DNA of 64,000 nt from Marsupella aquatica (Eukaryota; Plantae; Marchantiophyta), in the NCBI GenBank assembly GCA_973895155.1, contig OZ316896.1, forward strand, positions 11,794,830-11,858,829. Reading direction: 5' to 3'. Every line of letters starts with the position of its first letter. Position 1 is the stretch's first letter. A program made the translations under genes and the position numbers. This document shows positions 9,900 through 49,590 of the stretch, one piece after another. The notes below the pieces were generated by a model. The model had not been told where the DNA came from, made no database searches, and was given only the letters and a program-made list of their open reading frames with translations.

Positions 9900-11850
9900 A
9901 ACTGCATTGAAAACTTGAAAGCGGTCTCCTAGTGTTTTCGCTTCAGTTTCTTTTTCTTTGGAAGCAAAGCCTGATTCACTTCTTCAGACTTAGTGTCTGG
10001 TTCGACTACTTCAATCTCCATCTATAAATCAGCCTGTGCTAATAAATCTGTTGTTGGAGTAGTCATGGACCGTAGTAGGGCAGTGTTAGAAAAATTGTCA
10101 TAAGCATTAGAAATTGATGATTTTTGTTTAGGAGTAGGTACTCGAAGACAATTTGCATCAACTACTGGTAATGCCTTGTTCTGATCAAGAGAAACATTGT
10201 TTGGAGCAAGAAGAGAAGCAAATGGCTGATCCTCTGATGTTATGGCTAGGGTTGGAGCAACACAATTCGATTGTCTAGCAGCAACCTTCTCGCAGGGAGC
10301 AATGGCTTCATTTGCATTCGCTTTGTCCTCCTTTGAAACATGAGTTACCCCCTGTGGTACGTCTGATGGGGTACCCTGGACAAGTGTTAAGGCTGAACAT
10401 AATTCCAAATGATTCTCAATATACTTTTGCAAATCTCCAATCAATTTCAAAATCGTTTCATACTTCCTGTCCAACAAATTCTTCTGGTTGGTAATTGCTG
10501 AAGCAATTTTTGTCAAGTTCTTGGTATAGTTTTTCCATCCTTCAGACGTCAACGCAGCAAGATGAAGAGTATCAGTAACAGTGAGTGCAATTCCAGCTAC
10601 AGTAGTTGAGAGAGTATGAACCGATTGCTGGATTACTGGCAAGACTGAGCTGTGGAGCAACTCCTTCAATTGCTTCTCAAGCTCACGTTTCTCCACTCTC
10701 CACTGTTTCCTTTCTTGATCAATTCGCGTAGAAGATGAGTATAGGTCTTAGATCTTAGCAAGTAAAGCATCTCCTGAACAAGAAAATCTAGTTTGTAGCT
10801 GATTAATCAAACCAGCATTGATGGAATTAGCCCTCCAATGGACACAAGTCATCCGAATCCACCTGAATAACAGAGATTTCTTGAGGTTTCTTGATTGATG
10901 TTGAACCTCGTGGTTGACCCCTCAACACTCGCATAGGGGCTGCCTGAAACTCAGTTTTTACAGGAATCTCTACATCGTCCTCATCCTCTATCTCACTGTC
11001 TTCATCTTTGGAGGATGGGTCTTCAATGAGGGCTCTGTTTGCCTCTTCTTCTTCATAGAACTGTAACTCTGTTGTCAAAAGCTTCTTCTCGAACTTGTAC
11101 AAGTGGAACAACATGGGTGCCACAAACAAATCGATACCATCCTTCACCTTCTTGCACCTCAACTGAAAAGAATCTAAAAGCACACTAGCCCAATTGATTG
11201 GTTTACCTTTGTCATAGGCGGTGACAATCATGGCAGCCAACTTGCCTACAATTTGTCTGGGCTTATCGGGTGTCAAAATTGGTACAATGAAACGAAGGAT
11301 TGCTCAAAGTGCTGGATCCTTTGCTGAGTTCGGTGTATAGCCTTCCTTCGCAAACTCAACAGAGAATTGGTCCTCGCAAATATCATGGAACAATCGGGAG
11401 GAGGTGAAATCTTCTGCAATTAGGCCTACCGAAGAAACGCCATAGCAATCCGCCATCTTAGACTGCTCAGTAATCGTTGTGTAATCTGATCGGGCAGTCA
11501 CGTTCTTCACACGTTTATTCTGCAGGCGTATTTCGTCCACCATCTTCACATTGTTGATCAGCCAGAGAAAGTCGGCTAACGAATTGATGCCCACCTTCTT
11601 GTAATTCTCTCGATTACTGGCCATCTCGGATTCAGGAGGCATCACAATCGTCTTCTCCTTCACCATTGCTGCTTGAACTTTGCTTACAATGGGCGCCTCG
11701 ACCACACCAGAGAGCCGATCTTGCTCTTGGCCTCCTTCTGACCTGCGCGCTCAATGTTCAGGTCCGCTTTCTCTTCTCAATCTTTGCCACATGCATTCGC
11801 CGATCTTCTTTCAAGAACGATTTGTTATAGCCGGTATGAGGTATTCGTTT
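9900..11850 (-). pseudogene. Degenerate accessory ORF downstream of Gypsy pol (env position)
   Basis: ORF pieces 11304-11705, 10827-11276, 10022-10696 on the pol strand just 3' of integrase; motifs KPINWASVLL and APMLFHLY, an acidic tract, then a coiled-coil-like segment. Confidence 0.6.
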
Positions 11851-12178
11851 GCCCTGTGTACTCGCTTCCAGTACACGTATTCCTCTTTGCCGCCGAATCA
11901 AACCATTTCAAAGTTGAAACACAATTAAGCCTTCTCTTAATCATTTTCCCTTTTTCCCTAAAGGTATGTGGTTGAGAGAGCTCAAAAAATAAAAAATTTA
12001 ACAATTTTAACCTAAAATGGTTATCTTAACTTATATCATCATCTAATCTTTACGAAGCCATCCCCTCCTTATATAAGGGAGTGACCACACGACCCTACTC
12101 CAATGGCTGAGCCATGTATTTTTTTACTCTATGGCCATTTACTCTAGTAACTAATTCTTCTCCATCAGTAGTGGTAAG

Positions 12179-13617
12179 CTATAAGCTACCATTAGACCAA
12201 ACATTCTTAACTACATAGGGACCTCCCCACCTAGTGTGGAGTTTTCCTGGAAACTTCAAATAACGATTGTCATATAATAAAACTAAATCTCCTGCCTTAA
12301 TGGTTGTTGGCTTCAACTTCTTATCATAATTCTTCTTCCTACGTGCTTGCTGAACATGAGTATGTGTGAGTGCATAAAGACGATTTTCCTCCAAGTGTTC
12401 TAATTCTGCTAATCTAATTAATTGGCTTTCTTCAGGGGGTAAACGTTGGTCTTCCAAGACTCTTGCAGTGGGCAAACTGAATTCTATAGGAACAATAGAG
12501 TCCATCCCATAAACCATATAAAAAGGAGTTCGTTTTGTGGTGATCTTCTGTGCAGTTCTATATGCCCATAGTGCAGATGCTAACTTCATGTCCCAATCAC
12601 TCTTATGTGCAAAAACAATTTTTGTGAGGATTTTACAAATGATGCCATTAGCTCTCTCCATCAAACCATTTGCCTTAGAGTTATACGGAGTAGTTTTGCG
12701 GTGCTTGATCAGGTAAGTGGTGGTGAGCAGTTCTATGGTGCTATTTAGGAAGTGAGTGCCTCTATCACTAACCAACTCTAAGGGACACCCATAGCGAGTG
12801 ATAATATTATCAAAAAGAAAAAGTGTTGTAACAGCTGCATCATCCTTCCATACCGCTTCGGCTTCCACCCACTTGGTGGCATAATCGGTAGCCACAATGA
12901 TGTAGCGATTCCTCCTTCGTTGGGTAATAGGTTGTATGGGACGCACAAAATCAATGCCCCATTTTTCAAAGGGAGCAAGAGGCATTATAGGAACTAAGGG
13001 CCATCTCCCACTAAGTAAAGGTTTCCCCATGCGCTGACAAGGGTCACACCCTTTAATGAAGTCAAGTACATCATTATGCATGGAGGGCCACCAATAACCC
13101 GCATCACGAACTTTGGCCACCGTTGTATTCATAGTAAAATGTCCACCCGAATCCCCTTCATGCAATGCACTAATCACTATAGACACCTCATGCGTCTCCA
13201 AACATCGCTTAAGCTTAAGGTCAGACATGGCTTTATGTAACACACCTTTAATGAGGGTGTAAGGCCCCGCCTTATGTACAAAAATTGCCTGCTGCTCCGC
13301 ATTCATGTGTTGAGGAGGTCGACTAGTAATGAGAAAAGAAACAATCTTAGCATAAAGCGATTGTTCACCCTCCATGTGAAATAACTCCTCATCAAGAAAC
13401 ACATCGGGAATTGCCTCGGTATCACCTTCTCCTTCCAACCGAGATAAGTAATCAGCATTGACATGACTTTTTCTAGGGCGCACCTCCACTTTAAATCGGA
13501 ATTCTTGGAGAAGTAGAATCCAACGTGCAATTCGGCCTGACAAATCCGCCTTATTAAAAAGATACTTAAGAGAGTTATGATCAGTATGAAAAATAGTGTC
13601 ATAACCAAGGAGGTAGT
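12179..13617 (-). pseudogene. Gypsy RNase H C-part plus integrase with GPY/F module
   Basis: 513-aa ORF whose true homology starts at YLLGYDTIFHTDH. The first ~35 aa come from the inserted 4.6-kb element. Confidence 0.9.
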
Positions 13618-16600
13618 TGTGGTGCGTCCCATGGCTCCCTAAACCCAAGAAACCCCCCAGCTCAAGCCGATTCCCGCAGGTTTCGTGCTTGGCGAGGCCG
13701 TTTCCGCGGCTTAGCGGCATGGGACGCTGCTAACCTTCTACTACTACTATTAACATTTTACACTCATATACTGGACAGATCCTTCATCGGGTCATGAGAT
13801 ACGTAACCGGCCTAATATAGGCCTTCCCCTGTCTTCCCCTGTCTTCCCCTCCGTCTTGTTAGGTATGTTTGGATTCCGCCGCCGGAATGATCCCCAATAG
13901 GCTTGGTTAAGCCGCTAAGACCTCTCTCAGCTCGACACATCCAACTCTCACTCCCCTGCTTACTTTCCTTCCTTCTGTTGATGTGGGCACTCTTCACACA
14001 AGTTAATGCGACACACAAATAGCAAAATGACTCATTCTGACTGAGTCATACCATGCACTTGCCATACAAACAGTACATCTCATACACAAGTTCTGCGAAC
14101 TAAGCCGTGAGGCCAACTCTATTCAGCTCTTAGGCATGAGGAAACATGAATATACACAAGGGTCACTGTATGACTAACCGAGAGCTTCTCGTACTACTTG
14201 ATCCCAGCCCGGCTGGTGCAAACTAAAAACTTGCTAAAGAAGAGGCCCTGAGCTCCCCGCTGCCCAGGTACTTATCCTGGTAGTGGATCCGCCATTCTTT
14301 GCATCGTAAGCCTAATCTACTTAACAGTAATCTACTTGCCCGAATCTACCTATGTACAGCAAGGCAGGAGCACAAGTGTTGCTCCTACCAGTGGGACCGC
14401 AATCCCACTAAGCTAAGTGTCAGGGCCGCTCCTGGTTCTGATCCTAATCCTAAACGTGGAGATCCGCGCCCGCCCTGCCCACTCATGCCTCCTCCCTCCA
14501 CGTCCGCCCTCCCTAAAAGGAACGGCGCCCTTGCACCGTCACGACACCGGTGGTGGATCCTTAATGGACGCCCCCAACGCTTCCTCCTCAGCCACTGCCG
14601 TAGGTTCATTCTCTGACAGATTACCTGCCCTTGACTGAGTCAACTCTCCATCGGCCTGACTGGGTCCACCTTCGGCTTCAGCCTCGACACCGGCCTCGGC
14701 AATACCCACGGCTTCGGCCTCAGCCACTCCCTCGGCTTCGGCCTCCCCTTCCCCTAGGGTAGTTGGATCCCTAGCCGTGACCCTGTCTGGGGTCGATGCT
14801 GGGTCTACCTCCTTGATCACCACGGCCTGTGAAGTCGTATTACTCCTTGACCCTGAAGGTTTCCGCTTCTTCTTCGTTGGTGGCTCGGCAGCTGGTCCCT
14901 TCCCCTTCCCACTTACTTCCGGCACTGGTGCAGGTGGCGCGGCTTGTCCTTCGGCAATTACCACCCCTGGTAACTGGTTTGTCCCAACGGGAGATGGACC
15001 TGCTGTAGCTAAGCATTTAAATACTGCGGCTTGTTTCTTCAGCCGCTCTGTTTGGTTGTCGGCCCGCCGCTGTAGGTTTTCCATCTTCCTCGTGATTTCC
15101 TCCAACTCCTCTTGGGTTTCATCCAGGTCCTTACGTGCCCCCTCCAGCTCGTTTTTGGCCTCCTCCTGCTCCCTGTGGGCTTCCTCCAATTCCTTCTTCA
15201 AGGTAGCCCTCTCCTCCTGGGTTGCTCTTAGCTCCTTGTCGAGCTCTGCAATGATGACAGACTCCATCTGGTTCATCTTGGCGTAAGTCTGTTCGAGCAT
15301 CTCGTCCTTCTCCCTTAGGTCGGCCTTGAAGCTGGCCGTCAGGGACGCAAGCTCCTGCTGTAGCGCCATAATCCCTTGATAGGATTTCCCTAACTCGCCC
15401 TCCTTCTGCTCAAGGGCTCCGCGGATTTTCTCGAGCTCCCCTTTCAACGCCCATTCCTTTCTTTGGGTCTCCGCCATGGCCCGGCTGTTGGCTGTTATGT
15501 GGGCCTCCTCTGTATTCTTCAGCTCTTGCTTCCACTTCTCCCTCTCTTTGATCATGTCGGCCAACTCTTCCTGCGTCTGAGTCAGTTTATCCTTGATATT
15601 CTGATTATCAGCCTGCGCGGTGTCCAACTGCCCCTGCATGATGTTCAGCTCATGTCGTTTAATCCGCAGTTCATCTTGGGCTTTCTTGGCCGCCCTTAGA
15701 TCTTCAATCTCGGCTTCCATCCTCCTAAGCCGCCGAATGACCTCGTCCTTCTTGCTTCTCTCTAAAGCCACCGCTTCTTCTAATTGGTGCTTCTCCAACT
15801 GCTCCCTATGGAAAAAGGGTCCTACCTCCAACTCCTCTCCAAAGATGCCGAGCGCAAGTTCCCCACACATCTCACCATACTCCATGGCTCTATTCTTAGC
15901 GTAGGTGGAGTAAGTAGAAGTGATCGGCATCGCCCATCGTGGCCTCTGCTCCCAAGCCGTCCTACGGATCTCTTCAATCGTGGCTAGAGGTTTGCTTCCT
16001 TTTTCGGCTAGCCGCCTGATGTCCTCCGGCCAATCTCCTCCTGGTAAATCCTTTTCCTTAGCCAGGGCGGCCTCCTCCTCCTGCTTGATTCGCTCCTGAA
16101 ATTCCTGCACCGTCTGTTTTATGCCGTCGAAGCTTGGGGGAGCAACATCTGGTGGGGGAGACTCAGGGCTACTCTGCTGGTTGGGGTCCCCTCGCACTAC
16201 CCTTGGAAGTGTGGGGACAAACCGGCCACAGGTCCTTACTCCTGGAACGTGATGGTCCGACCCATAGCCGGAATTATCATGGCTGCAGTCCTCCACTGCC
16301 TCCTCTACCTCTTGGACGTCCGGCTTCTCCCTCTCCTCTTCGTCGGTAGGAGCTTCAGGCAATTCTGCCTCAGATTCGGAGCTTGAGGTTCCCACGTACA
16401 TTCGAACACCTGGCTTGGATTCCGGCCTGATTCTCTCCTTGTCTCCAGCAAAGGGGTTTTCTCTTGTGAGCCGGTGTAGGCCTACCTCTGTAGTAGTGTC
16501 CTGCATTGTTGCCGTTGCCGTTGTTGTTGCCGATGCCGATTTCTTTTCTTTCTCCAGTAGTTTCAGCAGACTCTGCATGCCTGGTTGCTGCATCGGCAAG

Positions 16601-18253
16601 TCTTCCTTCCTGGGCCTAAACACCTACTCGATCGTAGGACTAACAGGTGGTTGAGGCTTCTCAGCCAACGGCCTCGGCGTTGGAGCTTCCTCGGGTGCCC
16701 TTACCTGCAGGGGAAGTACCGGGGCAAAAGTCTGGCCTCTGGCATACCGGCACAACAGCGGCATGTGATAGCCAAGCCGCGACACGCTCCCCATGCCGAT
16801 TACCTGCTGCTCCTCCTTTAAGATCTTCTTCAATTGGTTGAGGAGGTACCCGTTGTAGTCCCGGCTTGGGTCTGGCCTTTCTGCCAGATAGACCTGTGCC
16901 TTGCCGATCTCTGCCCTCGGCAAGTTACAATGCATGGTCACCCGCAAGAAGTCGATCATCTCTCCTATGTGCGGGTTGGTGCAGGTGTTCCGGAAGAAGC
17001 CATTCTTCGTTGATGGCCCGGGGAACGACCGGAACTCCTTGTCAGGCAGGGTCTTCCTGGTATCAACTTTGGTCTTATTGCCTATCGGCAAGCCAAACAC
17101 TTCGGCAATTACCTTGGGAGTAAGATAGAAATCCTTCCCATATATCCTCGTGCAATTGGTCTCGGGTTCCCATGACCCCACGAATTCTAATAGGTCTGAC
17201 TCCGGTACCTCCGGCTTCAGCCATGGTAATCTTACAAAGGCCTCCAAGCCGGATCCGGCCATGAAGCCTTGGTACTTCTTGGTCTGCATGGCCGTAAAGC
17301 ATGCATCCTCCTCCCGTGCAAAATGTAGTTGCACCTCCACCGGTAGGGTTGCCGCCCAGCCCTTCCAGGTGTCATCCCTGGTTGGAATGGCCTTGATGGG
17401 ATCGACCTCCTCCTCTTCGGCTTCTCCCTGCCTCCTGCTCTGCTGCTCGGCTGGCCTCTTTGGTGCCGCCGACCTCGTTCTTTTTGCCGGGGTGGCTTCA
17501 TCGTTGACGGCCCCCTTCCTCTTCATCTCTGCTGCCGTGGAGGTTTCTCCTAGCACCGTTGCCTGGGTCCACCTTTCCGTGCTACCCTTTAATTCCCAGT
17601 GTATGTCGTTGCAATTCTTGATGGCCTCTCGGATGCCGACGACGCTGTCTTTGCAAAACAGAAGATCGTCGAGTTGATTGGAAGTAGGCGTCCACAGGAA
17701 CTCGTCCTTGATGAGTTCGCCTCCTAAGAAAGCCGTCTTCTGCAGCTCCCACAATCGAGCGAGCTCCTGCCGTTCTTGAGCTGCCCTTTCTGACTCCTCG
17801 TCCTCGTAAGTCTTGATGTACTCAGTTGCCCGTTCGAACAGGCATCCCTAGAAATGTGCCGCTTGATTGACGTTGCTCATATCCTCCTTAGGTCGATCGT
17901 CGGTTTCTACTCTCTCCCCGAGTGCTTGCCTAAGCAGCTGACAGTAGTTGGCCTCCCGTAGTCGTCTGCCTAGTTCGTGCTCGCAAATGAGCCACCATCT
18001 CCTGCAAGCGCTCCTTACCCCTCTCCTCTGCCGGTCCTTCTTCCCGTTGATCCTTCCTAGCCGCCGACGCTTAACGCGCCCTAACCCTAATCGGGTTTTC
18101 ACCCTCAGCCTTACCTCCGGCCTCTGCCCGGGTTCCATGGTTGCCCCTAATTGTTTATATTTTCCTTGTTTTGTCCCTATACTAAGGTGTTCCTAGGGTG
18201 CCTTCCTGCTTTACCCACTTAACCGGCCGAGTGATTCCTGTCTAGGCATCACA
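13618..18253 (-). mobile_element. 4.6-kb TG...CA element, copy 1 (protein-coding solo-LTR-like unit)
   Basis: Termini TGTGGTGC...GCATCACA; 5-bp TSD GTAGT (13613-13617, 18254-18258). It splits the Gypsy RNase H at HHY|LLG. No gag/pol and no terminal direct repeats. Confidence 0.92.
14539..18138 (-). pseudogene. ~1199-codon ORF: N-terminal plant-transposon/PMD-like region, long coiled coil, basic NLS-like KKKRK; two nonsense mutations
   Basis: ORFs 17848-18138, 16624-17754 and 14539-16623 lie in one frame. TAG at 17848 is TGG in copy 2; TAG at 16624 is CAA/CAG in copies 2/3. Motif FYLTPKVIAEVFGLP. Confidence 0.85.
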
Positions 18254-19014
18254 GTAGTGATGAAATTTTTTGCAAGAAAAAACAATGCCCAGAACTTCAC
18301 GTTCAGTGGTGGAATAATTTTGCTCGGCACTATTGAGTTGACGACTGGCAAAGTAAATAGGGTGGTGCTTATCACGCTCATCTTTCTAACTCAACTCAAT
18401 CCCTATGCAAAACTTAGAAGTATCCACAAAAACATGAAACTTTTTTGACCAATTAGGAGGGAGAAGGACTGGAGCTACAGTCAACGTATGTTTGAGGGTG
18501 AGGAAGACATTGTCTTGTGCCTCATTCCACTCATAAGGCACATCCTTTTTAAGAAGTTGATTAAGAGGTGTGGCGAGAACAGGATAACCCTCAATAAATT
18601 GTCTATAATACCCAACATAGCCCCAAAACCCCCTTAACTCACGCAAATTAGTGGGCACTTCTAAGGCAAGGATGACTGTAATTTTATCATGATCAACAAC
18701 AATGCCTCTCTGCAAAATTTTGTGACCCAATAAAATGCCCTCTGTCATCCCGAAGAAACATTTTTCAGGGTGCAAACACAAGCCAGCCTCACGACACTTA
18801 GCAAAGGTCTTCCTTAGTTTCTCCAAATGGTCCTTTTCACCACTGAAAACACAAAAATCATCGATAAAAATCTCCAAGAAATCACGCAGGTAATCCTGAA
18901 AAATAACAGCCATTAGCCTTTGAAAAGTTGTTGGGGCATTACACAACCCAAGGGCATGCGAGAAAATGCATAAGTACCCCAATCAGTTGTGAATGTAGTT
19001 TTAGACTGATCTGA
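18254..19014 (-). pseudogene. Gypsy RT core and RNase H start
   Basis: GLCNAPTTFQRLM, IFIDDFCV, KCFF, LRGF.G..GYYR.FI, FHVFVDTS. Confidence 0.9.
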
Positions 19015-19015
19015 T

Positions 19016-33553: not shown

Positions 33554-35593
33554 TGCATTTCAAGGAAAACCGCTAGGCTGCTAAGTCATTTTAGCCGTTT
33601 GTCATGAGTTAACCAGTGGGTACTGTGGTGCGTCGCATGGCTCCCTAAACCCAAGAAACCCCCCTGCACAAGCCGATCCCACAGGTTTCGCTCTCGGCGA
33701 GGCCGGTTCCGCGGCTTAATGGCATGGGACGCTGCTAACTCTCTTCTACTAACATTTTACACACATATACTGGACAGATCCTTCATCGGGTCATGAGATA
33801 CGTAGCCGGCCTATTCTATGCCTTCCTCTCCTTGTCTTCCTTTAGGTATGTTTGGATTCCGTCGCCGGAATGATCCCCAACTGGCTTGGGTTAGCCGCTT
33901 AGACCTCTCTCAGCTCAACACATTCAACTCTTACTACCTTGCTTACTCCCTTCTCTCTTGGTTGATGTGGGCAATCTTCAAACAAGTTAATGCGACACAC
34001 AAATAGCAAAATGACTCCTTCTGATTGAGTTATACCATGCACTTGCCATACAAACAGTACTTTTCATACACAAGATCTGCGAACTAAGCCGTGAGGCCAA
34101 CTCTATTCATCTCTTAGGCATGAGGAAACATGAATATACACAAGAGTCACTGTATAACTAACCGAGAGCTTCTTTTACTACTTGATCCCAGCCTTGCTAG
34201 TGCACTAAAAACTTGCTAAAGAAGAAGGACCTGAACTCCCCGCTGCCCAGGTACTTATCATGGCAGTGGATCTGCCTAATTCCTTGCAGCGTAAGCCTAA
34301 TCTATCATAACTATAATCTACCTATGTACAGCGAGGCAGGAGCACAAGTGTTGCTCTTACCAGTGGGTCCGCAATCCCACTAATCTAAGTGTCAGGGCTG
34401 ATCCTCAATGGACGCCCCCAACGCTTCCTCCGCAGCCACTGCCGTAGGTCCATCCTCTGACAGATTACCTGCCCCAGACCCAATCAACTCTCCCGCGGCC
34501 TGACCGGGTCCACCCTCGGCTTTGGCCTCAGCATCAGCCACGGCCTCCGATACGGCTATGGCCTCCCCGGTCTGCTCTAGTGGTGGATCCGGTACCCCAA
34601 CTTTATCACTGATTTTCCGGCCTCGGTTTTGCCATCCCCGCCTTCTAGGACAGTTGAATCCTCTATCGTGACCCCGCCTGAGGCTGGTGCCGCGTTCTCC
34701 TCCTTGGTCACGGTGGCTTGAGAAGCCGCATTGCTCCCTGACCCAGAAGGTTTCCGCTTCTTCTTCCCTGGTTTGGCAGCTGGTCCCTTCCACTTGCCAC
34801 TTACCTTCGGCACCGGTGCAAGTGTCGTGGCTTGTCCTTCGGCCAGTACTACCCCTGGCAACTTTGTTGCCACAATTGGAGTTTGAACTGATGAAGCTAA
34901 GCACTTAAATACTGCAGCTTGTTTCTTCAGCCGCCTTGTTTGATCGTCGGCCCTCCGCTGTAAATTCTCCATCTTCCTCGTGCTTTCCTCCAACTCCTCT
35001 TGTGTTTCATCCAGGTCCTTGCGCGCCACCTTCAACTCCTTCTGGGCTTCTTCCAATTCCTTCCTTAAGGTAGCCCTCTCTTCCCGGGTTGCTCTCAACT
35101 CCTTGTCGAGCTCCATTACAACCTCAGACTCCATCTGGTTCATCTTGGCGTAAGTCTGATCAAGCTGGTCGTCCTTCTCACGCAGGTTGGCCTTGAAGCT
35201 GGCCGTCAAGGATGCAAGCTCCTGTTGCAGCACAATAATCCCTTGACAAGATTTCCCTAACTCGACCTCCTTCTGCTCAAGGGCTCCGCGGAGATCCTTG
35301 AGCTCCCCTTTCAACGCCCTCTCTTTCCTCTGGGTCTCCGCCATGGCCCGATTGTTGGTTGCTATGTGGGCCTCCTCTGCGTCCCTCAGCTCCCGCTTCC
35401 ACTTTTCCTTTTCCTTGACCTCGTCGGCCAACTCCCCTTGGGTCCGAGTCAGTTTATCCTTGATAATCTGATTATCAAACTGAGCGGTATCCAGTTGCCC
35501 CTGCATGATGTTTAGCTCATGCCGCTTAATCCGCACCTCATCTTGGGCTTTCTTGGCCGCCTTCAGGTCTTCCGCCTTGGCTTCCTTCTCCCT

Positions 35594-35890
35594 CTCGGGG
35601 GTCTCACTATATGGGGACCTCCCCATCGCCTGCGACGTTTTTAGGGCTCGGACCCCCTAAAATATAAGAATTTATTTTTATTTTTTAACCCCTATAAAGT
35701 TGGAATATTCTTGGAATATTCTAAAAATTGGATTAAAAAGGCCCTAATGTTCTTATAAGTCTCAAAATTGAATTTGAAAGACCCTACTGTTCTTCTACAA
35801 AAATTCTGAAGTCTTCCCTTAGAACCAATAAAATGACCCTATCCTTCGTCGCACGTGATATGCCATTTTCGTGGAAGTGAAACCCCCGAG
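35594..35890. mobile_element. hAT-like MITE (297 bp)
   Basis: 15-bp TIR CTCGGGGGT(C/T)TCACT; 8-bp TSD TTCTCCCT (35586-35593, 35891-35898); absent from copies 1 and 3. Confidence 0.88.
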
Positions 35891-37455
35891 TTCTCCCTAA
35901 GCCGTCCGATGACCTTGTCCTTCTTTCTTCTTTCCAAAGCCACCACTTCTTCCAATCGGCGTTTTTCCAACATCTCCCTCTGGAAAAAGGGTCCCTGCTC
36001 CAACTCCTCCCCAAAGATGCTGAGCGCAAGTTCCCCACACATCTCCCTGTACTCCATGGCTCTTTCTTGCGCATAGATGGAGTGAGTAGTAGTCACTGGT
36101 ATCAACCACCGTAGCCTTTGTTCCCAAGCTGCCTTTCGGATTTCTTCTATCGTGGCTGGAGGTGTGCTTTGTGTTTCTACAAGCCGCCGGATGTCCTCTG
36201 GCCATTCTCCCCCAAGTAAATCCTTCTCTTTGGCCAGGGCTGTCTCCTCTTTTTCCCTGAGCCGCTCCTCAAACTCCTGTGCCGTTTGTTTTATCCCGTC
36301 AAATCTCTGGGGAGTGACATTTGATGGGGGAGACTTGGGGCTGTTTTGCTGTTCTGTCCCCTTGAACTACTCTAGGAAGCATGGGGATGAAACGGCCATA
36401 GGTCCTTACTCCTGGGACATGATGGTCCGACCCGTAGCCGGAGTCATCATTGTCGTAGTCCTCCACCGCCTCTCCTCGGCTTGGACTACTGGCTCCCCCC
36501 ACTGCTCTCCTGGTCTTGCTGTGAACACGGCCTCCTGCCAAACATAGCTCACGGGTCCTAGTTCCTCCTTCGGCTTGCAGGCTATCCTCTCCCTCTATTT
36601 ACCTCGACCAGGAGCTTTAGGCTGCTTTACCTCGGCTTCTGGACTCGAGGCTCCTACATACATTCGAACCCCCGACTCGTGTTCCGGCCTCCTTCTTTCC
36701 TTGGCTCCGGTAAAGGGGTTTTCCCTCCTGAGTCAGCTTAGGCCAACTTTTGGGGCAGTGTCCTGTACCGGTGTCGTTGCCATCGCAGCCCTCTTTTCCT
36801 TCTCCAGCAATTTTAGAAGATTCTGCATGCCTGGTTACTGCATCGGCAAGTCTTCCATCCTTGGCCTAAACACTTGCTCGATTGTAGGACTGCCAGGCTG
36901 GTTTGGTTTCTCTGCTGCCGGCCTCTATTCCGGAACTTCCTCTGGTGCCCTTGCCTGCAGGGGAAGTACTGGGGCAAAGATCTGACTCCGGGCATACCGG
37001 CACAACAGCGGCATGTGATAGCCAAGCCGAGACACACTTTCCTTGCCGATCACCTGCTGTTCCTCCTTCAAGATCTTCTTCAGTTGGGTGAGGAGGTACC
37101 CGTTGTAGTCTCGGCTTGGGTCTGGCCTCTCCGCCAGGTAGACTTGTGCCTTGCCAATCTCTGGCCTCGGCAAGTTGCAATGCATGGTTACCTGCAGGAA
37201 ATCAATTATCTCCCCAATGTGCGGGTTGGTGCAGGTGTTCTGGAAGAAGCCATTCTTTGTTGATGGCCCTGGGAACAATCGGAACTCCTTGTCCGGCAAG
37301 GTCTTCTTGGTATCTACTTTGGTCTTATTGCCCATCGGCAAGCCAAACACTTTGGCAATCACCTGGGGAGTGAGATAGAACTCTTTCCCATAGATCCTTG
37401 TGGAATTTGTCTTGGGCTCCCATGGGTATAACCACCGTGCTAGCAAATAGATATT

Positions 37456-37608
37456 CTCATACGAGCCAATTTTGCCTCATACAAGCAAAATTTTGTCTCG
37501 TACGAGTAAACAAGTTCCTCGTATGACCATATCTATTTACTCGTACGAGTTTCTGTTTTCTTGTATGAGTTTCTGTTTTCTTGTATGAGTATTTTTTTCT
37601 TGTATGCA
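37456..37608. repeat. Subterminal array of the 10-bp palindrome CTCGTACGAG, ~20-bp period
   Basis: Copies at 37456, 37476, 37497, 37518, 37540, 37560, 37580, 37599. Confidence 0.8.
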
Positions 37609-37896
37609 TTTTAGTTTCTTCTCTTCACGGTATGTAGCGTCCATATATGCAATAATTGTGTGGACAATATTATGGTGGGTCCCACCATTGTACAACATTA
37701 GAGGAAATTTCTCGATGATTTCACACAAGGACTCCAATATATTGCCACGAAATATGAAGTCAAAACAAAGTCATACAATACTAGCGCCCGACGCTAGTAT
37801 AGTATTATACAAAAAAACAACACTTTAAGAACTCACACTTCTGCCCGTTAGAAAAGACAAACTACAATTGTAGCTGTTCAACGATCAAGCAACAGT

Positions 37897-40800
37897 CTAC
37901 GTTCTCGTACCCAACTGCCTATCAAGTATGTAACGGACTTCTCCCAACGTTAGAATTGGCTGGCTACATAATGTCGATTCGAGCACATCCAGTTTGAACA
38001 TATTCTTGAACACCCAATACACATGTTTGCAAGGCATGTAAGGCTTCCGATAAGTATGTCGACGGTAGAAATCCTCGCAAGAGCAACATGGGAAACAACA
38101 TATCTTAACCCAATAAGAGGCGACTGATCTCTCATGTTCATGGGTCCAGATACAAAATTGTTTCCCCGACGCATTTCCACTCGTGATCACTCTCTCTCCA
38201 ATGACGCTCATCACTTCTTTTTCAAAGGCTTCAATTCTCTTCAAATGAGTTTGGGTTCCCGTTCCTTGAAGCGCACCTCACAGATGGGTCAGTTAGGTTG
38301 ATCCTCTCCGGGAAAAGATTGACATCAATTCGTAACGCAGAAGGCAACGGTGCTTCAATTTCATCTCCACGGCCTTCGGAGAGAATAAGTCCTTGTTCTT
38401 TCAAAAATTGAATCTCTGCTCCAGAAAGATTGGTCCCTCTAGCAATTGGGAGATGTGAAGGAACATTGGGAATGTTCGAGACTCCTCTCCTTGTTGTGCT
38501 TCGGTGACAGTGGTTGTTGGGGCAAAACCATATCTGATCGTTATAAGGTTGCCCCCTGAACATTCTGCATCCTCTCACAGAAATTGCAACAACACCATCT
38601 GGATTCGGAAGACCAACCTTCTTTACTCGATTTTGACATTCATCACGACTAACTCCCCGTCCAAGGGTTCCGTTACACATTGGACCCGCACCCCGTTTTG
38701 AGGTCCGACGCAACTGCCAGGCACCGGGAGGTACTTCACTTTCCATTGGGGAAACTGAATGACAATATGCAGTCTCGACAGGTCTTGCAGGCGTCACTGG
38801 TGGGACAGAGGATCTCGTTGCTCGACGCGTAGGTGTGTCAATGACCACAACTTCCTCAGAAGCATCGCTTTCTGACAAATTATGGACCGCATCAATTCCA
38901 CCGGCTGAAGGCGTAGAAGGCATTTTCTCGAAACCAGTGGAATGCAGGTTTCTCCTTTTCAAACCTTTTGTATTTGGTGAAGTAACAAGGATGGTATCAT
39001 GCCTGTGCGAGTCTTCTGCCGAGACGTTCCCAGTTGCATGTCCTTTTCGTTTCACCGATCGAGTTACAACATCACCATTCAATGGAACGCTTCTTTCCAA
39101 ATCAAACTCATCAGCGTTCGACAGGAGGAGATTGGTGGCTTCCTCAAAGAGACGCGGTGACCCCGCCAGGTCCGCCGATCTTAAGGCAAGCTCAAAAATA
39201 GTTGGGCCAGTTCCTCTGCTCAATCCCCTTTTGTATGCAGTATAAGCAGCAATTTGAGCAACCGCTCTATTTTGGTCCGTTTTACATCCTTCAAATAGAC
39301 CAACCTTTTTTTTTCTGTTGCCATGCTTTCATTCCAGCATGCCTAGATTCCGAACCAGTACTATTAGGAATCATCCCAGCCTCTTCGGCACTCTTGCTCT
39401 GAAACGTTGCACGCAAGGGTTTAGTACATGTAAGAAATTGCACACAAAAGTGGCAACACAATGGACATAACAGTAGCGCCAGACGCTAATAAACTGATGA
39501 TGATATTTCCATGTAAAGAACCGTTTAACACAGAATAAAGGTAGTCCTTACATCACTCATAGTCCAAATGGATTATTAGCGCTCGGCGCTACTATTGCAG
39601 ATAAGGAACCCTTCTATCTCACACATGCTTCACTAGCACCGAGCGCTATTAATGGGAACATGCATCCTAGAGAAGTGTATAACTCACCAGTCTTATGAAG
39701 TTCCCCCATTGTCTCTATCGGACAACCCACCAAGACAGCCACCCTTGCAGCATCCGAAGTTTGCCTGAGTGACAATTGCCAAACCTCCACCAGTCATCGA
39801 TTTCCCTAGAGATTCGATATGCTTTCAAGAAAGTTGGCGCGTTCCGAAGATGATCCCACATCTCCTTGTGCTCTCCGTGCTTTCCATCTTTTACACCTTC
39901 TCGGGAATGACGATGAAAAGATTGGAAAAAATGAAAGGCATCTGATCTTTCTCGCTCTGGGTCGGGTACACCGTCAAAGAACACGTTTCGAATAGCATTC
40001 CAACCAGCCTGAGCATTGTTCACCATGAATCCCCAAATTGTAACATCCTGTAAACCATTTTCATCGGCAACCTCTAACATCAAACGCCAGGCTCTCTCCA
40101 GAGATTTTGCATCTTCGGCCTTTAGCTCACAAGTGAATATGGTGCAAAGTGCCCGGTAATGATGATCATATACATGGGCACTGAAAGTAAGCCAATCTGC
40201 CGTGCTTCGATGCATCACGTCAAAACTTACCCATGAACCCTCTAACGACCCACCAGGTTTCATTCTTTGGAGCAGGTCCAGACCACTACCGTCACCTTTT
40301 ACGGTCATTTTAAAGATATGAGCACTCTCGTTCCGACAGCCTTGACCAGGGAGCAAGAACCTATGAAGAAAAGGCAGTCGGATACACTTTTGCATCCTCA
40401 CAAGAAATTCCAGTTCCCCTTTCCCCTTCTGATCTTGACGGACACTCCTTAACACGGATGCAAACTTCTGAGGAGATGCGACGACCATCAGGGACTCCCA
40501 GATTTCCTTCTCTTCTTCAAGAGAGATTTCTTCAACAGAGGCCTCGCAAAATGTATTCGTCAGTGTCTCAGTCGCAGAGTTTTTAATCCCTGCTGGGGAT
40601 GCCATCGGGTTTGCAGTGAATCCCTTCTCCAGATGAGACTTTGCAACCTTTTCTGCCTCCCTCGAAAAGACCCGTCAACTGGGATGATTGTGAAATCCCA
40701 TATGAACAGCTAGTAGCGACATGTGGGCCAAAGACTTAACGTCAACTTTTGCAGATGGATACATGTAGAACATTAGAGCAGGGCAGGCCTCAACGCACAT

Positions 40801-41688
40801 CGGAGGTTCGGAGCAATGGTGACAAACAACTCCACCTTCAGAGATCAATTCCCCAACTCAGAATGGGCCCGAAAGTTTTGGGGTTCTTGCCCACATCTCA
40901 TTATTTCAAAACTTGTTGTCTTTCCACCACGGACAAGCATTATTTCGACACTGCAGCGATCCCGTACACTGGACTTTCCCGAAATCCCACATTTTCTTCG
41001 GAAAAACATTTGAAGATGTTTTCACAATCCGAGTCCAATAATAACAATCCTTACCACGATCCATATCTTTCAAACGTTCACCTTTTGCGTTCACACAGTC
41101 TACCGGGGGTAACTCAAAAACCACATTCCCATTGTAAGACGTGGGAAGACTAGGCACTACATGATGAACAAAATCACTCCCCCTTATAAACCAAGACAAT
41201 TCACTATGACCTTTGGATTTCAAGATTGTATCCATTGCACTCTGCCGGTACACAGTCAAAGGCACAATCATTTCTCGATCCGCATTAGACTCCTTTTTAA
41301 CCTCGGATGGGTAAACTGGAATCTTCTCTCCGAGAGTAGTTGTCGCTTGCTTATCATCTCCAGAACTTTCCGAGAGTTCGATGACATCGAGTTCAGCCAC
41401 TGTGGGAGGACGAGTATAGGAGGCCCCAGAATCTCTCAAAACAAAAACCTCATATTCTTTCTGAGCCTCCAGAGTCCAATATCTTAGACCATGAACAACA
41501 TCGTAGAAAACTGGAGTCTCCCCCAAACAAACCGACACTAACGAGATCGCTAAAATAGACTCCTTGGCAACATCAAATCTCACTCCCAAATATTCCTCTG
41601 AAACATGCTTTGATTCAGATGATTTGAGGACGAGAATTGTGATTACATCCAGAGTGTCCTTCCTCGTGACAACGATATTTTGAGCCAT
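37897..41688 (-). pseudogene. MULE DDE transposase with GCM-like N-terminal Zn domain and C-terminal SWIM finger (frameshifted; intron ~39687-39400)
   Basis: DCYYW..CTGSLQCRNNACP; WVSFDVMHR, FMVNNAQAGWNAIRNVF, DAFHF (CxxH position), PNSTGSESRH; SWIM CSCEDF..PCKHVYWV. Confidence 0.8.
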
Positions 41689-42401
41689 GGCTTCAAAAGA
41701 GGGATATGCATTTGCCCCACGCGAAATGAAATATGTTTATCATGAGATTCGAGTACCAGAAGTAAATGTTCCATTCTCATTATAGAGTCGTTATAGATTT
41801 GGACGCACTCCATCAATGACGTTTTGTCGTCTTACCAACGGCAGGATTCAGGTTCATAGTTACTAGCGCCTGGCGCTACCTCTATGTGTAAAACACCCTT
41901 GGGTGAGGACTACGAATGCCAATAATAATAGCGCCTGGCGCTACCTATTTCAATGGACTTGAAAACATTCAATGGAAGGATAAGTACAATAACACGATAC
42001 AGTACGAGTCATTAAGTCCGCACGCTTTAAGATCTCCACTAGATCTTCGCGAATCCGATCTGTCCGGGTCCAAATGTGTCAGAGAGGAAGCGTCCACGAA
42101 AGTTATACCAGAGGGTCCTCTTCAAAGTGGGCAGCCAGGACCAAGTGCGAACTCTCCTTATATCTAGTCGTTCTCCTCCGATGTCCTCATTGTCAAGCCA
42201 TTCTTTACTGAGTCACAGTTGTGGCTCATCTTTCGGGCGCGTGGTTCCCGTTCTCGCATTCGGGCCCAGTTGCTCTTTTTGGCTTTCATGCACGTTCTTG
42301 TTCTCCTTCTCGTCCTCGTTTCTCATTCTCGTCCTAGTTCACGCTGTTGTCCTCCTTCACATTCTTGTTCGCGCTTCTTGTTCTCGTCCTAGTTCACTTT
42401 C

Positions 42402-42825
42402 AATGGCACCTCCACGGGGGAAGGCAAAGGAGGAGGCACTTATCCCGAGTGACACCGACCGGGAGACCCCCGCATCAAATAGCTTACCACCTCGGGACGA
42501 GAGGACGACTGTTCCAATCTCAAAGAAGGAGAAACTCATCTCAAAGACGAAGAATGCCCCAACTATGGGACGCAGCGAAGGATCCAATCGGCCAAATGCG
42601 AGCGGCCCGACTTCTGTTCCCGCTAGGGATATTGCCCATGCTTCAGTCGGCCGTCCAAGAGCCGACACTATCTGCACGGGAGTCTCCGTATCTTCTTCAT
42701 CCACTGAGAGTGATCATTCTTCGAGCGGGGACTCATCACTGAGCAGGCGAGGATTTGCGTGGTATGGATCGAGCGACTCGAATGACGACTCTGATGCGTA
42801 CAAGCCAAGTTGGTGGGAAGACTGA
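42402..42825 (+). CDS. Possible small Ser/Pro-rich ORF between the two MULE genes
   Basis: ATG-started part (MAPPRGKAKEE...) of the 249-aa ORF; low complexity, no recognised domain. Confidence 0.25.
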
Positions 42826-43973
42826 TTTCCCGGTGTCAGAGCGTCTCGTTCGAGTGCTGGAGAGACTTGGAGGATCCATCGAGGTTGATAGGATCTAATT
42901 CCACTCGTTTTTTTCCGTTACAAAACCCATACCGTTCCTTCCTCGTATGCCGGATTTCTAGTGTATTGTAACATTTTGTATATGAACGGCACAGCCGTTT
43001 ATTTTTACCCCGGTGTCAATGCTTTTGAATTCAGAAGACCAAGCTTTAATTTTGGGTTCTACTCCGGTGTTTGCATTGTATTTCTGAATGCGAAACTGAT
43101 CTATTTCTTTGAAATGGCCGTAAACACTCGTTTGCTGTCAATGTTTTTACTAGCGTTCGGCGCTATTATGACAAACAAAGTGTCCGTAACACTGTCGTGA
43201 CATGTCTTATCTCTGAAGTGTTTTTGATAGCGTTGGGCGCTATTAATGAAAGGAATCACAAGTCAGACCCGTTCGGAGTTATTTTTACTTTTATTTCAAC
43301 AAAGTCTATTCAATTGATGTGCATTTTAATAGCGCCAGGCGCTATTGTAATTCATTGGAATATTCGTTGAATGAATGGGTTCATGTGGTCATGTTTGTTG
43401 TCATTGGACTCCGATTTCATCATTTATTTGGATACTAGCGCCGAGCGCTACTAAAGTTGGCTTGTCGACTCCTGCACAAAATTGGAAAATTTATACACAC
43501 TTGTGTTGATAGTACTGTTCGAAGCTACATTAAGACGGTTTTTCAGATACATTTGAAAGTATGTTGTATAATAGCGCCTGGCGCTATCCACAACTACCGA
43601 CATTGATGTGGTTCCAACGGTCACTTTCCAACGGTAATATTATAGTAGATTGAGGTTCACTGAACCCTTTTTGCTTTTGTCTGGGATGAAAGTCCAATCG
43701 GAGAATGCCATCTGTACTTGGGACCGTTGTAATCGAATGGCTGGTTCCAATGTATCGGTGTCTTAATACGAGGTGGAGATCGCTCGTTTGGGATAATTTA
43801 GTCCGTCTACGCGCTCAGACCTCGGACTGTACGAGTTTGTCAAGTGCGTATGTGCGTCCTTTATTGGTCCTGTACATTTTGAGACGTGATCGTGACAAGA
43901 ATTGCACGGCGCGTCTGGCAGTGCCTTTGGTCGAGTCGCTCTCCACGGCAACTTTTGGCTGGGTGATACGAGA

Positions 43974-46900
43974 ATGGGGGAGGCTGATGGTGGTCATTCT
44001 GAGTCCTCTCAGTCTTCGTTCGCTGGTTCAGTATACACCCATCGCGTCACTCGATCGACTGCGTCCCTGTCGACTTCCGAAGCTGAATCTGCACAGCCCT
44101 TCCTGAGGTCGAGGAGAGGGAGAATGGACCCTAAGGACGTCTCCATGGATGAAGTCAGTGACATAGGCTTATCGATAGACGAGGTAATATCAAAGCACGC
44201 ATTGTCGTTCGGGAAGGATTTTTGAGGATTCGATAAGGAGCCACCTCGAATTCCTCTTTGTAGATTGCTCCTCATGGAGGTTGTTCGAACCTTACAGAAA
44301 GAAAGTGCATCGATCGAGAAGTTGAAAGAATCATTCCGTGTCACCGGGTACAACTCGCGCATTGGGATGCCTTTCTACGTTCAGCCTGCGAATGCCGATG
44401 GGGTTTCTCAGATATGCACCGGCAAGATCCAGGACTCTTGGGATCCAATCTGGGTCGCAGAGAACGACAAGTTTGAGGAAGAGTGTGATGTGGACCCAGC
44501 ATTCCATATTCTAAAAGATAAAATGTTTTGTGTGTTTGACGGAAATCATCGATTGTACTCCTGGTCAATCGTCACCAGGGAGAATCTGGACAACTTGAAG
44601 TATCATCCTCGTGTGATTTGCGTCATTTTCAGTGGTGACAGAGGTTCGCTAGTTGAGCTCGAGGCGGCAATGCACACCGTGAACCAGTAAGTTCTATTCG
44701 TTAACTGTTGTTACCCTTGTCATTCATTTTGGACCAAACATGCTTCGCGAAAGTGTTCGTTCCCCAATTTTTGCTAGCGCCCGGCGCTACTAATTCCTTT
44801 TCATTGCATCCAGGCTTGGACAAGCAGTCGTCGAGCCTTCCTGGATTCTTGACGCGGACAGAATTTCCCGAATTGTGTCGCGTGATCTTGATCACTATAA
44901 GCCACTCATCGACAGCGCGAACATGGCAAAGTTTGAGGTGATCCGAAATAAGACAAGAAATGGGTCTTGGTTTACACATAAAATGCCACAGGATGCTCTC
45001 ATCTACATTGTGTGTGGACAAAATCAAGTCTTACTCAAATCAATTTAAGTCTGATATGGCTTTAGCCAAAGCTCAATGGGCTTCTTGGTCAGAAGAGGAG
45101 ACCACAAAGAGGCATGAGGCAATGATGAAGGAGGCGACCAAAGATTGGTCGATCAAAGTGACGAAGATCACCCCTTTACTTCATCCAGATTTTGGAGATT
45201 ATTTGGGAACTTGTGCTGAGATGTATCCCGTAACTGAGAAGAACAAACGGGAGAAGAAGCCAGACACAGTTGTATGCACAATGGATCGAGCCAGGTTGTT
45301 TACTGTTGTTTCATACCTGGATCCAAAATTGAGGTGCACCCTTCTAGTAGCCCACTGCACTCCCGAGATTCGGAAACAGTTTTTCCATCCTGCAAGTGTC
45401 AACGACAAGCCTGTGAAGCAGTGGTGCCATACATGGCATACTTGGAATTCTGTGGAGGGAATTGCAACTGGAATGCTTCACACTTCTTTCAAACAGATTT
45501 CTGACCGAATGCCGGCTGACCGTCTCACAAAGTCTGGGTGTGAGTCAATGGAGGCCATGCTTAAGATCATTCTCGATGAATTTAGAAACTTTGGGGATCT
45601 TGTCAAGGCAAAATTCTTCAACAACTTATGGCCTTCCAAATATGCGGACAAGGAAGATTACACAGAGCGGAACCGGAAGAGAGCCAAACGATATCTATAC
45701 CGGTTTTACATGTGGATGGAGCTTAGATCTCCTGACACTCTGTGGGCATACCCGGCTGCATTTCAGAAATGGGTGTCTATTGAAGAGGGAGACGCTCTTG
45801 CCGACCTTTATTCGATGTACCTCGACACTGTCCGTGGTACCTCGACACAGACAAATGGGATTTACCGTTCGACGAAGCTGAGAAGGATGCCTTCATGAAG
45901 TTGCAGAAGTCCCAGATCCCTGCCAACTATGTGTCTGCAATGAAGCAAGGTCTCCAGTCTGATGTTGACGAATCTGCATCTGAGTTACAGAAGAATTGTG
46001 AGTCTCTTGTCATGCACGTTGACCGAAGCCGTAAGCCAAGAGCAAAGGTGAAGAATGAGTCGGCTGCACCAAGTGACTCCACAAGGTCCTTCAAGAAAAG
46101 TGAGTAGTCTAAGCGCTTTTTGGTTACTTGTTGGCGCTGCTTATGGAGGAGTTTCATTTGGAAATTCCTTTGATTAATAGCGCCTGGTGCTAGTCTGAAA
46201 GGTTGGACTCATTCAAGTTTCTGTGCCTAACAGGAGGTCGAAAGTCCGACACGGAGGTCCCGGCTGCCAAAGGGAAGAATGATGCAACTCCTCAGGCATC
46301 GGAGGCAAACACTGGAGCTCAAGAAACCCCGGATCAAGGGACCCCGGATGGTGCTGGCAAATCCATTGTCCCTCTTGACGCAACTAGCACAAAGAAAAAG
46401 AAAAAGAGAGGCGCCGGTGAGGACAGAGCAACATCATCTACTCGAGACGTTATTTCCTGTGGACTCTAGAGAGATGTCGGGAATTTTAAGCGAAGGTGTT
46501 CTAGACACTGTTTTGTGGAGTCCAATTTAAACAAATTTTACGATTCGGTATTTAACAAGGGGATAAGCCCATGTGGGTTACTAAAGTTGAGGCCTGGGGA
46601 AAGGAATTGGTAAAGTCAGGAGACAGAGAGAAGGGAGTAATGCGTGGCGGAAAAGAGAGGGGCTTTGGTGTGGATGCTGGTTTCATCTACATTCCCACTG
46701 GATTAAAACCAACACTTCTTGATCAGAAGGTTCCCAAGTGGAACCTTCAGGATTACACTATTCCCAGCTCTTTCTTCCGAGCCATGGAGCCGTTCCTTGC
46801 AGACGATGGCCTACTTGCAATTTTACATAGAGGAGACTATGATCAGGTATCTGAAGTGATTGCGGCTTGCCAGGATTCTAAGTGTTTCCAGTGTATTTCA

Positions 46901-47684
46901 ACCCACCATGTGGTCATGACTACACCAATGTATAGGCCCCGATCTGATACTCAGGTAACAATTCCTCTTGCACATACTAGCGCCCGACGCTACTATCAAC
47001 ATTCGTAATATCTACAATTCACTTATCTTTCGTAAGGATGAATGGTTGACTAGCGCCAAGCGCTAATATATGTCTATTTTCTTATACTGCCTTCATTGGG
47101 AAACTGTGTTGCAGATATTCACACTTACTCTTAATATATTTTGCCGCATTTCGACAAAGGGAAGGGTCCCGAAAGACCCCAAGTTCCGGCCACTATCGAA
47201 TGATGAAGACCCTTCCGTCACTAACATTATTGGGTTTTCGTTGCCGCGAGATGACCCGACTCCTGAGCTCCAATTTGCAGGAAATTCATGATTGCCTGTG
47301 GGTTTCATGCAAACTATTTTGGAATTGGTGACTCTTCCTGGAGATATCGTTATGGACTGGACAGTAGGTTCCGGTAGTACGTTTGTGGCTGGAGATTATT
47401 CTGGTCGCTTTGTTGTTGGGCTGGAAAATCGGCCAGAGTTTGTTGATACTTCCGGTAAGGTCTTCCTCGATCTTTTACAGAACAAAGAAGTGGTTGCACC
47501 AACTCCTCCTAAGAAGATTCCTGGAAGTAAGAAGCAGGACAGGCTCCGTGCTATTCTAAATTTTGATTCGGAAGACGAGGATGAGGGTGGAAATGCTTCT
47601 CAGCAATCTAAAGATGATGAGGTGTTGAAGAATGTGGTGGACCTTGGATCTGGAGATGAGGACAGTGAAGAGTCAAAAGAGTAA
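43974..47684 (+). pseudogene. Spliced MULE cargo gene: ParB/Srx-like domain plus beta-class N4C/N6A DNA-methyltransferase-like domain; exons ~43974-44686, 44814-46099, 46234-46954, 47115-47684
   Basis: ParB-like: RIPLCRL..VR..IEKLKESF..GY..FYV..FCVFDGNHRLYSW. MTase-like: VDAGFIYIPTG (motif IV position), FLADDGLLAI (LkpgG-like), LPVGFMQTILELVTLPGDIVMDWTVGSGSTFVAGDYSGRFVVGLE (motifs X/I/II). Canonical GT..AG introns; in-frame TGA at 44223 and 47289 plus frameshifts. Confidence 0.75.
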
Positions 47685-49248: not shown

Positions 49249-49590
49249 ATGAAGCGTGATCCTGATGGGTTCTTGTTGGCCAATTTTAGGTCCAGAGTAC
49301 CAGAATGGTCTGAGCCTTTTGTTTTCCCTAGCCAAGTTGAACAGGCTTTCTTTCTAGATGTGGAGGGGTCACATGACTGGAGGGTGGTATGCCATAGCCA
49401 AGCACGGAATAGGCGGATGGATGGAAGTAAAGTAGAGTTCAGTTTGGACGACCATGCTGCATTCAAGCATCCTAGTCAGGAGACCGTAGTTCCAGCTTGG
49501 GCAGGGACCGACTACATCCCGTTAACATTGAGAGAGACATATGATGAACCTGGGGAGATGGAATATGATGAGGTTGATGATGTGCAATAG
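49249..49590 (+). pseudogene. CACTA TnpD C-terminal remnant (DUF4216-like)
   Basis: DPDGFLLANF..EPFVFPSQVEQAFFLD..DWRVV. Confidence 0.75.

Follow-up and report, generated by a model that had tools for sequence, protein, structure and literature searches.

A conserved gene carried by a probable giant solo long terminal repeat of a Gypsy family in the liverwort Marsupella aquatica

How does a unit that bears the ends of an integrated retroelement come to carry a long gene of its own, with neither gag nor pol inside it? A 64,000-nucleotide stretch of the Marsupella aquatica genome (contig OZ316896.1, positions 11,794,830 to 11,858,829; hereafter "the window", with positions counted from its first letter) contains such a unit at 13618-18253, in which a reading frame of about 1,200 codons fills most of the length. 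A preliminary description of this stretch had offered two explanations: a Gypsy family with giant long terminal repeats (LTRs) that embed an accessory gene, or a new LTR-less element moved by an integrase. The former is better supported here, by a polypurine tract (PPT)-like run abutting the unit, by kinship of its gene with a Gypsy extra open reading frame (ORF) and by purifying selection, and the first two of these disfavour the LTR-less alternative. We consider it probable that the unit is a solo LTR of a high-copy Ty3/Gypsy family, with the accessory gene in sense orientation within U3 (the unique 3′ region).

The unit and its gene

The features on which the argument draws are as follows (TSD, target-site duplication; PBS, primer-binding site; RT, reverse transcriptase; aa, amino acids).

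13618..18253, minus strand: copy 1 of the unit (4,636 bp with TG...CA ends), a probable solo LTR in minus-strand orientation
13613..13617, plus strand: left TSD GTAGT, empty-site joint with five shared letters in two of four public runs
18254..18258, plus strand: right TSD GTAGT, direct flank of copy 1
18154..18159, minus strand: TATAAA box, kept in copy 2, about 20 nt before the first ATG
14539..18138, minus strand: long reading frame of 1,199 codons plus TGA, interrupted in copy 1 by two premature stops
17848..17850, minus strand: premature stop at codon 97, private to copy 1
16624..16626, minus strand: premature stop at codon 505, private to copy 1
16699..17421, minus strand: core domain (aa 240-480), most conserved part, predicted VANC21/DUF1985/PMD-like fold
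15004..15771, minus strand: coiled-coil-like region (about aa 790-1045), 21-nt spaced repeats, weak Pfam matches below cut-off
14313..14351, minus strand: short array in the non-coding tail, built of ~15-bp units that share a TAGATT core, three of them in copy 1
13624..13728, minus strand: terminal stem-loop of about 105 nt, likely the R-U5 (repeat and unique 5′) end, minimum free energy -65.6 kcal/mol
33624..55031, minus strand: copy 2, TSD GGTAC on both sides, unit sequence at 33624-37424, 48451-48761 and 54245-55031
58876..63054, minus strand: copy 3, truncated by ~570 bp on the side where the ORF starts and without a PBS past the opposite end
10025..18982, minus strand: host Gypsy around copy 1, with RT and RNase H at 18389-18982, RNase H-integrase at 12182-13729 and an extra ORF at about 10025-11750

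Copy 1 was confirmed as a 4.6-kb TG...CA unit with GTAGT on both sides, starting with TGTGGTGC and ending with GCATCACA. It sits between RT and RNase H-integrase, in the RNase H region of the pol of another Gypsy element (the host Gypsy). Once copy 1 and one TSD are removed, the host RNase H frame reads on without a break, and the corresponding empty-site joint (13612 to 18254, five shared letters) was present in two of the four public sequencing runs examined for it; copy 1 is therefore a true insertion. Pfam searches found neither a gag/pol domain, in agreement with the preliminary description, nor a transposase domain inside the unit. Comparison of its first and last 600 bp gave no terminal direct repeat (local score 19, against a shuffled mean of 21 and maximum of 29), and its terminal inverted match extends to 7 of 8 bp (TGTGGTGC versus TGTGATGC). 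TG...CA ends with a 5-bp TSD fit the product of an integrase and, since it lacks internal terminal repeats and has only this short inverted match, the unit fits a single LTR.

Three copies of the unit, 78-87% identical over blastn segments, lie in the same orientation within 49.4 kb, the third being partial as previously described. Two of them had been called complete, with different perfect TSDs; the TSDs stand (GTAGT and GGTAC, 5 bp each, both copies being TG...CA), but copy 2 is complete only if two nested insertions (37425-48450 and 48762-54244) are set aside, and other indels and stops interrupt it. Copy 3 carries frameshifts and stops as well.

Of 17 public runs, 15 held at least part of the unit and six at least half of its words; six were examined in detail. 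Summed contig depths, which are not copy numbers, rose from 1,196 to 682,179 (~570-fold) at the left end of the unit in run X1 and fell from 30,170 to 682 (~44-fold) at the right end in run X5. These sharp steps indicate exact unit boundaries and a highly repeated family. Depth was fairly even along the unit, with no separate high-copy short terminal piece, and joints connecting unit ends to internal unit positions were read as copies inserted in copies. Runs under four coded organism labels held 0.59-0.79 of the unit words; two of the labels (X1; X2, X5) gave high unit depth and the other two (X3, X6) low depth. No RNA run was among those listed as containing the unit, which is neutral as to expression. 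Protein-based locus scans returned no loci in viral contigs (one confirmed stretch), metagenome contigs or prokaryote genomes, and the exact 23-nt unit-end motif had no match in metagenome and viral contigs.

The first ATG is situated 115 bp in from the 18253 end; counted from there to its TGA, the frame spans 1,200 codons, or 77.7% of the unit. The extent reported in the preliminary description thus holds, but the frame of copy 1 is not open, with stops at codons 97 and 505. At both codons a sense codon was read by at least 98% of the depth in each of four public runs, so the stops are private to copy 1 and the family frame is open there. The ratio of nonsynonymous to synonymous divergence (dN/dS) had been proposed as a check on a functional ORF, and it is not near 1: pairwise values between copies over the whole ORF were 0.27 (confidence interval [CI] 0.22-0.33) and 0.30 (CI 0.24-0.35). 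In the core (aa 246-480) dN/dS was 0.11-0.17 (0.11 with CI 0.06-0.17), in aa 701-1045 it was 0.22-0.26, and in the last 150 codons 0.85-0.95. Bootstrap intervals for the whole ORF, aa 246-480 and aa 701-1045 lie far below 1. The gene is under purifying selection. The two shifted control frames gave dN/dS of 0.87-1.37 over the whole ORF. A chance ORF was rejected.

Differences between copies 1 and 2, the only pair available for codons 1-86 and one in which copy 2 has frameshifts there, showed no codon-position bias in that part (7/7/7 and 12/10/8 for the three positions), whereas codons 87-200 showed a third-position excess (6/6/16 and 11/7/22). This makes Met87 (at 17880, 373 bp from the end) the likelier start; the first ATG was correctly placed by the preliminary description but is probably not where translation begins, and the protein would have about 1,113 aa. 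The TATAAA box is the likely promoter for the ORF; from its position, transcription would begin shortly after the first ATG. Divergence between copies is only 7-12% in the non-coding tail downstream of the gene but 31-37% at synonymous sites, so the tail is constrained as well. Its ~15-bp TAGATT array varies in unit number (three in copy 1, two in copy 2, four in copy 3) and is a candidate binding site. The terminal stem-loop was kept in all three copies and was more stable than expected (z = -3.86, with 0 of 200 shuffles as stable), with no compensatory change among the three copies (0 of 40 pairs altered on both sides).

Pfam searches of the ORF gave weak matches below the cut-off only, which were read as coiled coil. 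The maximum 19-residue hydropathy of the protein is 0.82, so it has no membrane segment, and an env-like membrane protein was rejected on this ground; basic clusters are present. Word-based homolog searches gave no match, and relatives came only from a full HMMER search (23 matches). One match, a 2,214-aa protein containing bacterial Ig-like domains, was judged spurious and set aside, and three cover the N-terminal part only; the ten that were looked up, at 25-32% identity, comprised four uncharacterised proteins of the liverwort Calypogeia fissa and six without an organism name. An alignment (A3) was built from the query, 19 of the 23 matches and five cluster members. The A3 core profile found the three unit copies and the extra ORF of the host Gypsy (at 11369-11139, E = 5 × 10−6), and nothing else in the window. 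This relation was detected by profile only; a direct BLASTP comparison between the core and part of the extra ORF fell short of significance (E = 1.4). As the extra ORF found by the profile is sense to the host pol and lies downstream (3′) of its integrase, the unit gene belongs, on profile evidence, to a family of Gypsy accessory ORFs and is a distant relative of that ORF. The likely assignment of the unit itself to Gypsy rests on this kinship, no pol of a parent element having been found.

Folded with A3, the core gave a model with a predicted local distance difference test (pLDDT) of 79 and a predicted template modelling score of 0.76; the single-sequence fold was unusable (pLDDT 35). The top VIA-align match of the model was DNA-bound VANC21 (Z = 8.6, root-mean-square deviation 4.3, 212 of 241 residues), with the next match at Z = 3.2 (48,161 chains). 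Foldseek likewise placed the VANC21-DNA structure first (template modelling score 0.51; others ≤0.20 among the matches listed), and no viral structure matched the model at E ≤ 0.001. A separate method, the atlas, pointed to a DUF1985 cluster (0.88) and a PMD cluster (0.86), as leads only. Several results weigh against a VANC-like fold: one of five core models was confident (pLDDT 79 versus 55-59), the Foldseek E value of the VANC21 match was 0.92, the Z of 8.6 is just above the best Z of 7-8 typical in VIA-align for models without a clear match, and the atlas scores fell below 0.9, with 142 and 129 shared features. Furthermore, none of the 25 A3 members matched Pfam DUF1985 or PMD at E up to 1, and no PDB sequence matched the core profile. 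The gap in Z to the next match, together with the coverage, nonetheless lends moderate support to a real relation between the predicted core and VANC21. This predicted VANC/PMD-like fold had been missed by the preliminary description, as had the two in-frame stops, the nested insertions of copy 2 and the later likely start.

Architecture of the unit

In run X6, a single contig crossing the 18253 end extends 106 nt beyond it; on the minus strand, AAGGGGGA-T stands immediately ahead of the TG, a purine run that matches a PPT in place and form. Sequence beside this run matched the window once at three mismatches, against 0.77 matches expected by chance. Eight purines that include GGGGG and end within 3 nt of the position are found at 0.12-0.13% of positions in the window; for any 8-purine run the figure is 1.9-3.2%. 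Because such a run abuts the start of the unit in one public contig, a giant LTR is favoured over an LTR-less element, and it is from this one PPT-like flank that we infer LTR identity and orientation. The host Gypsy may offer a parallel: a run of 10 purines followed by TG lies at 12070-12061, just past its integrase stop and before its related extra ORF, a possible counterpart to a gene-in-U3 layout, in which case the host extra ORF may also be inside an LTR. The LTR ends of the host Gypsy could not be placed in the window. LTRs of up to ~5 kb are described in plant non-chromovirus Gypsy elements (PMC6317226).

A number of observations weigh against reading the unit as a solo LTR. The PPT-like run was seen in one of ~14 flanks (five public at the right end, four public at the left and five in the window); at the 18253 end itself it was seen in one of the five public contigs listed and in neither of two window flanks, the other four contigs (X3) being two mixed consensus rows and the X7 sequence stopping short of the end. 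Over ~14 flanks, the chance of such a run is roughly 2% by the strict definition and roughly 1 in 3 by the loose one, and the criterion was set after the sequence had been seen. No PBS follows the 13618-type end in any of three window flanks, as would be expected for solo copies, and none was seen in the public row past that end, a mixed consensus of four contigs with an agreement of 0.55. Paired copies around gag-pol were not seen in the window or in the public contigs examined. The intact ORF that the preliminary description had proposed to look for was likewise absent from the window, where all three copies are broken by stops or frameshifts.

Could the 4.6-kb unit instead be the whole element, LTR-less and non-autonomous, mobilised in trans by an integrase, or a transposase resembling one, for which its TG...CA ends serve as recognition sites? 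In favour of this, each of the two complete copies in the window is bounded by a TSD of its own with no internal region next to it, depth varies little over the length of the unit, no PBS was seen, and the joints of unit ends to internal unit positions were read as copies inserted in copies. However, reverse transcription requires two terminal repeats and the unit contains none internally, while integrase-type DNA transposons have terminal inverted repeats longer than the 7/8-bp match found here. Together with the PPT-like run and the kinship of the protein to an extra ORF of an LTR retrotransposon, this makes an LTR-less element unlikely in our estimation. Reading the unit as a giant plus-strand LTR, in which the gene would be antisense as if a Retand-type antisense ORF had been absorbed into it, is harder still to sustain. 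Antisense extra ORFs with a putative DNA-binding domain (one with a structural maintenance of chromosomes [SMC] domain) are common in Retand-type elements (PMC11963269, PMC7264820), and the orientation preferred here derives from one contig; yet the purine run precedes the 18253 end on the minus strand, the related extra ORF of the host Gypsy is sense to pol, and Retand is reported only from eudicots and monocots (PMC11963269), whereas the named homologs here are from a liverwort.

Least probable of all is that the unit arose by deletion or recombination from a short-LTR element with an internal extra ORF, comparable to large retrotransposon derivatives (LARDs) or terminal-repeat retrotransposons in miniature (TRIMs), so that the gene would not be in an LTR. 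The usual internal position of extra ORFs (PMC7264820, PMC6317226) and the location of the related host ORF after the integrase would agree with such an origin, but no direct repeat links the first 600 bp of the unit with its last 600 bp, window copies that are 78-87% identical share the same two ends, and public depth revealed no short terminal piece at high copy. A TRIM or LARD in the strict sense was rejected, as the unit does not have two terminal direct repeats. Mutator-like elements (MULEs) of the VANDAL type have a TSD of ~9-10 bp and a MuDR transposase; a DNA transposon of this kind was rejected given the 5-bp TSD and the absence of a transposase domain. The antisense Retand TRP28 ORF, which lies between pol and the 3′ LTR, was also rejected, as there is no Pfam match to Transposase_28, the host relative is sense, and the lineage is described from eudicots and monocots only (PMC11963269).

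Neighbouring elements

The window is dense in transposons. Two more insertions, at 21370-25700 and 19000-20450, break up the host Gypsy: a Copia element (RVT_2 and Pol_BBD matches) and, inside the host RT, an AT-rich insert with 72-bp repeats. The first insertion in copy 2 (37425-48450, 11 kb) has a 9-bp TSD, and pieces on its minus strand look MULE-transposase-like by eye, with no Pfam match. Its plus-strand gene has an N6/N4 DNA methyltransferase match at 47292-47681 (PF01555, E = 5.8 × 10−8) and, at 44226-44687, what we take to be a ParB-like DGNHR motif; a bacterial-type methyltransferase carried by a plant transposon is noteworthy in itself. The second insertion (48762-54244) is a TG...CA unit of another family (~1.3 kb alone with an imperfect TSD, 5.5 kb with its insert), inside which lies a CACTA element at ~48869-53003 with a GAG duplication. 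Just before copy 2, a decayed long interspersed nuclear element (RVT_1, zf-RVT) occupies 29637-33107 on the plus strand. A pair of 166-bp inverted repeats, 92% identical and enclosing a short GC-rich core (56693-56858 and 57120-57284), resembles a miniature inverted-repeat transposable element. The only host-like gene noticed is a small plus-strand gene with an intron at 27342-28000, without a Pfam match at E 0.01, which resembles a plant SPIRAL1-type gene.

Possible function and its meaning

If the unit is a solo LTR, full-length elements (LTR-PBS-gag-pol-PPT-LTR) would replicate and integrate in the usual way, and a plus-strand primer site upstream of the accessory gene would place the gene in U3, so that it is copied into both LTRs and persists in solo LTRs. 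Recombination between LTRs would then produce solo copies that retain the gene along with its 3′ region and likely TATA promoter. Within the nucleus, where the protein is expected to act, its core would bind DNA and its coiled coil would serve to oligomerise it, and by analogy with VANC the protein may bind the repeats of its own family's LTR and favour transcription against host silencing.

Granted the LTR architecture, we rate such an anti-silencing role at somewhat less than even, since the same fold group holds the silencing factors MAIN and MAIL1. It does not follow from the fold whether the protein would oppose or favour silencing, and MAIN promotes silencing (PMC5418596), which counts against the proposed role. 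On the same condition, a different function (integration targeting, nuclear import or packaging, or transcriptional regulation) is slightly the better prospect. Roles of plant extra ORFs have not been established by experiment according to PMC7264820, the fold group includes silencing factors (PMC5418596), the fold match is moderate, and the candidate target array has only two to four units. On the other side, the one good match among solved structures is an anti-silencing protein bound to DNA, and the conserved tail with its short repeat of variable number is like the targets of VANCs (PMC10398659).

Accessory genes are widespread among plant retrotransposons. The additional ORFs of plant Ty3/Gypsy elements are described from the internal region (PMC7264820) and as heterogeneous (PMC6317226), with further examples in sunflower (PMC11728184). 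Those of Athila (eORF-3′F), Ogre (PMD-bearing) and Retand (TRP28) resemble the unit gene in being conserved accessory genes with a globular core and a coiled coil, likely nuclear (PMC7264820, PMC6317226, PMC11963269). In contrast to these internal ORFs, the unit gene is likely inside the LTR and retained in solo copies, and its protein has no Pfam match to PMD, Transposase_28 or Athila ORF-1 and no membrane segment. VANC21 of the VANDAL MULEs (PDB 9LNK/9LNJ) is the best structural match to the predicted core. VANCs carry DUF1985 (PMC5735166) and bind tandem motifs (PMC5735166, PMC10398659); like the unit protein, VANC21 is transposon-encoded, with a coiled coil described and a short variable repeat in the non-coding part of its element (PMC5735166, PMC10398659, PMC13547354). 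However, the unit core is only 9-12% identical to it, without a match to the DUF1985 profile, and its carrier is not a MULE but a TG...CA unit with a 5-bp TSD, in a bryophyte, whereas VANCs are given as dicot-specific (PMC13547354). VANC is structurally homologous to MAIN (PMC13547354), which places MAIN/MAIL1 and the Gypsy-encoded PMD-A clades, whose ancestry was left open (PMC5418596), in the same fold group, to which the PMD lead of the atlas also points. Differing from those proteins, the unit has no PF10536 match; the PMD survey concerned angiosperms, and MAIN/MAIL1 silence (PMC5418596). The sag gene of mouse mammary tumour virus (MMTV) provides an architectural analogy, as a protein-coding gene that lies within retroviral U3 and is still present in endogenous LTRs (PMC12548423), although its protein is unrelated and its carrier is a mammalian retrovirus.

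No plant retrotransposon with an ORF inside its LTR was found in the literature searched, which covered few subscription papers, and no Gypsy ORF linked to the VANC fold was found there either, supplements not being covered. The unit thus most probably presents a Gypsy accessory gene that has been relocated into a giant LTR, with a core predicted to be VANC/PMD-like. That a bryophyte Gypsy lineage moved a VANC-like, sequence-specific anti-silencing gene together with its target repeats into the LTR is, taken as a whole, rather unlikely. If true, every solo LTR would be a self-contained anti-silencing cassette, and deletion of retrotransposons by the host would leave a counter-defence gene behind. 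A VANC/MAIN/PMD fold on LTR retrotransposons outside flowering plants would also support a retrotransposon-first origin, and so bears on whether PMD, MAIN and VANC proteins arose in Gypsy elements or in host genes. Through the predicted link to the VANC21 fold, a class of orphan genes gains a function open to experiment, namely DNA binding and anti-silencing. A conserved gene of ~1,113 codons inside an LTR would survive the formation of solo LTRs, which would change what such "dead" elements can do.

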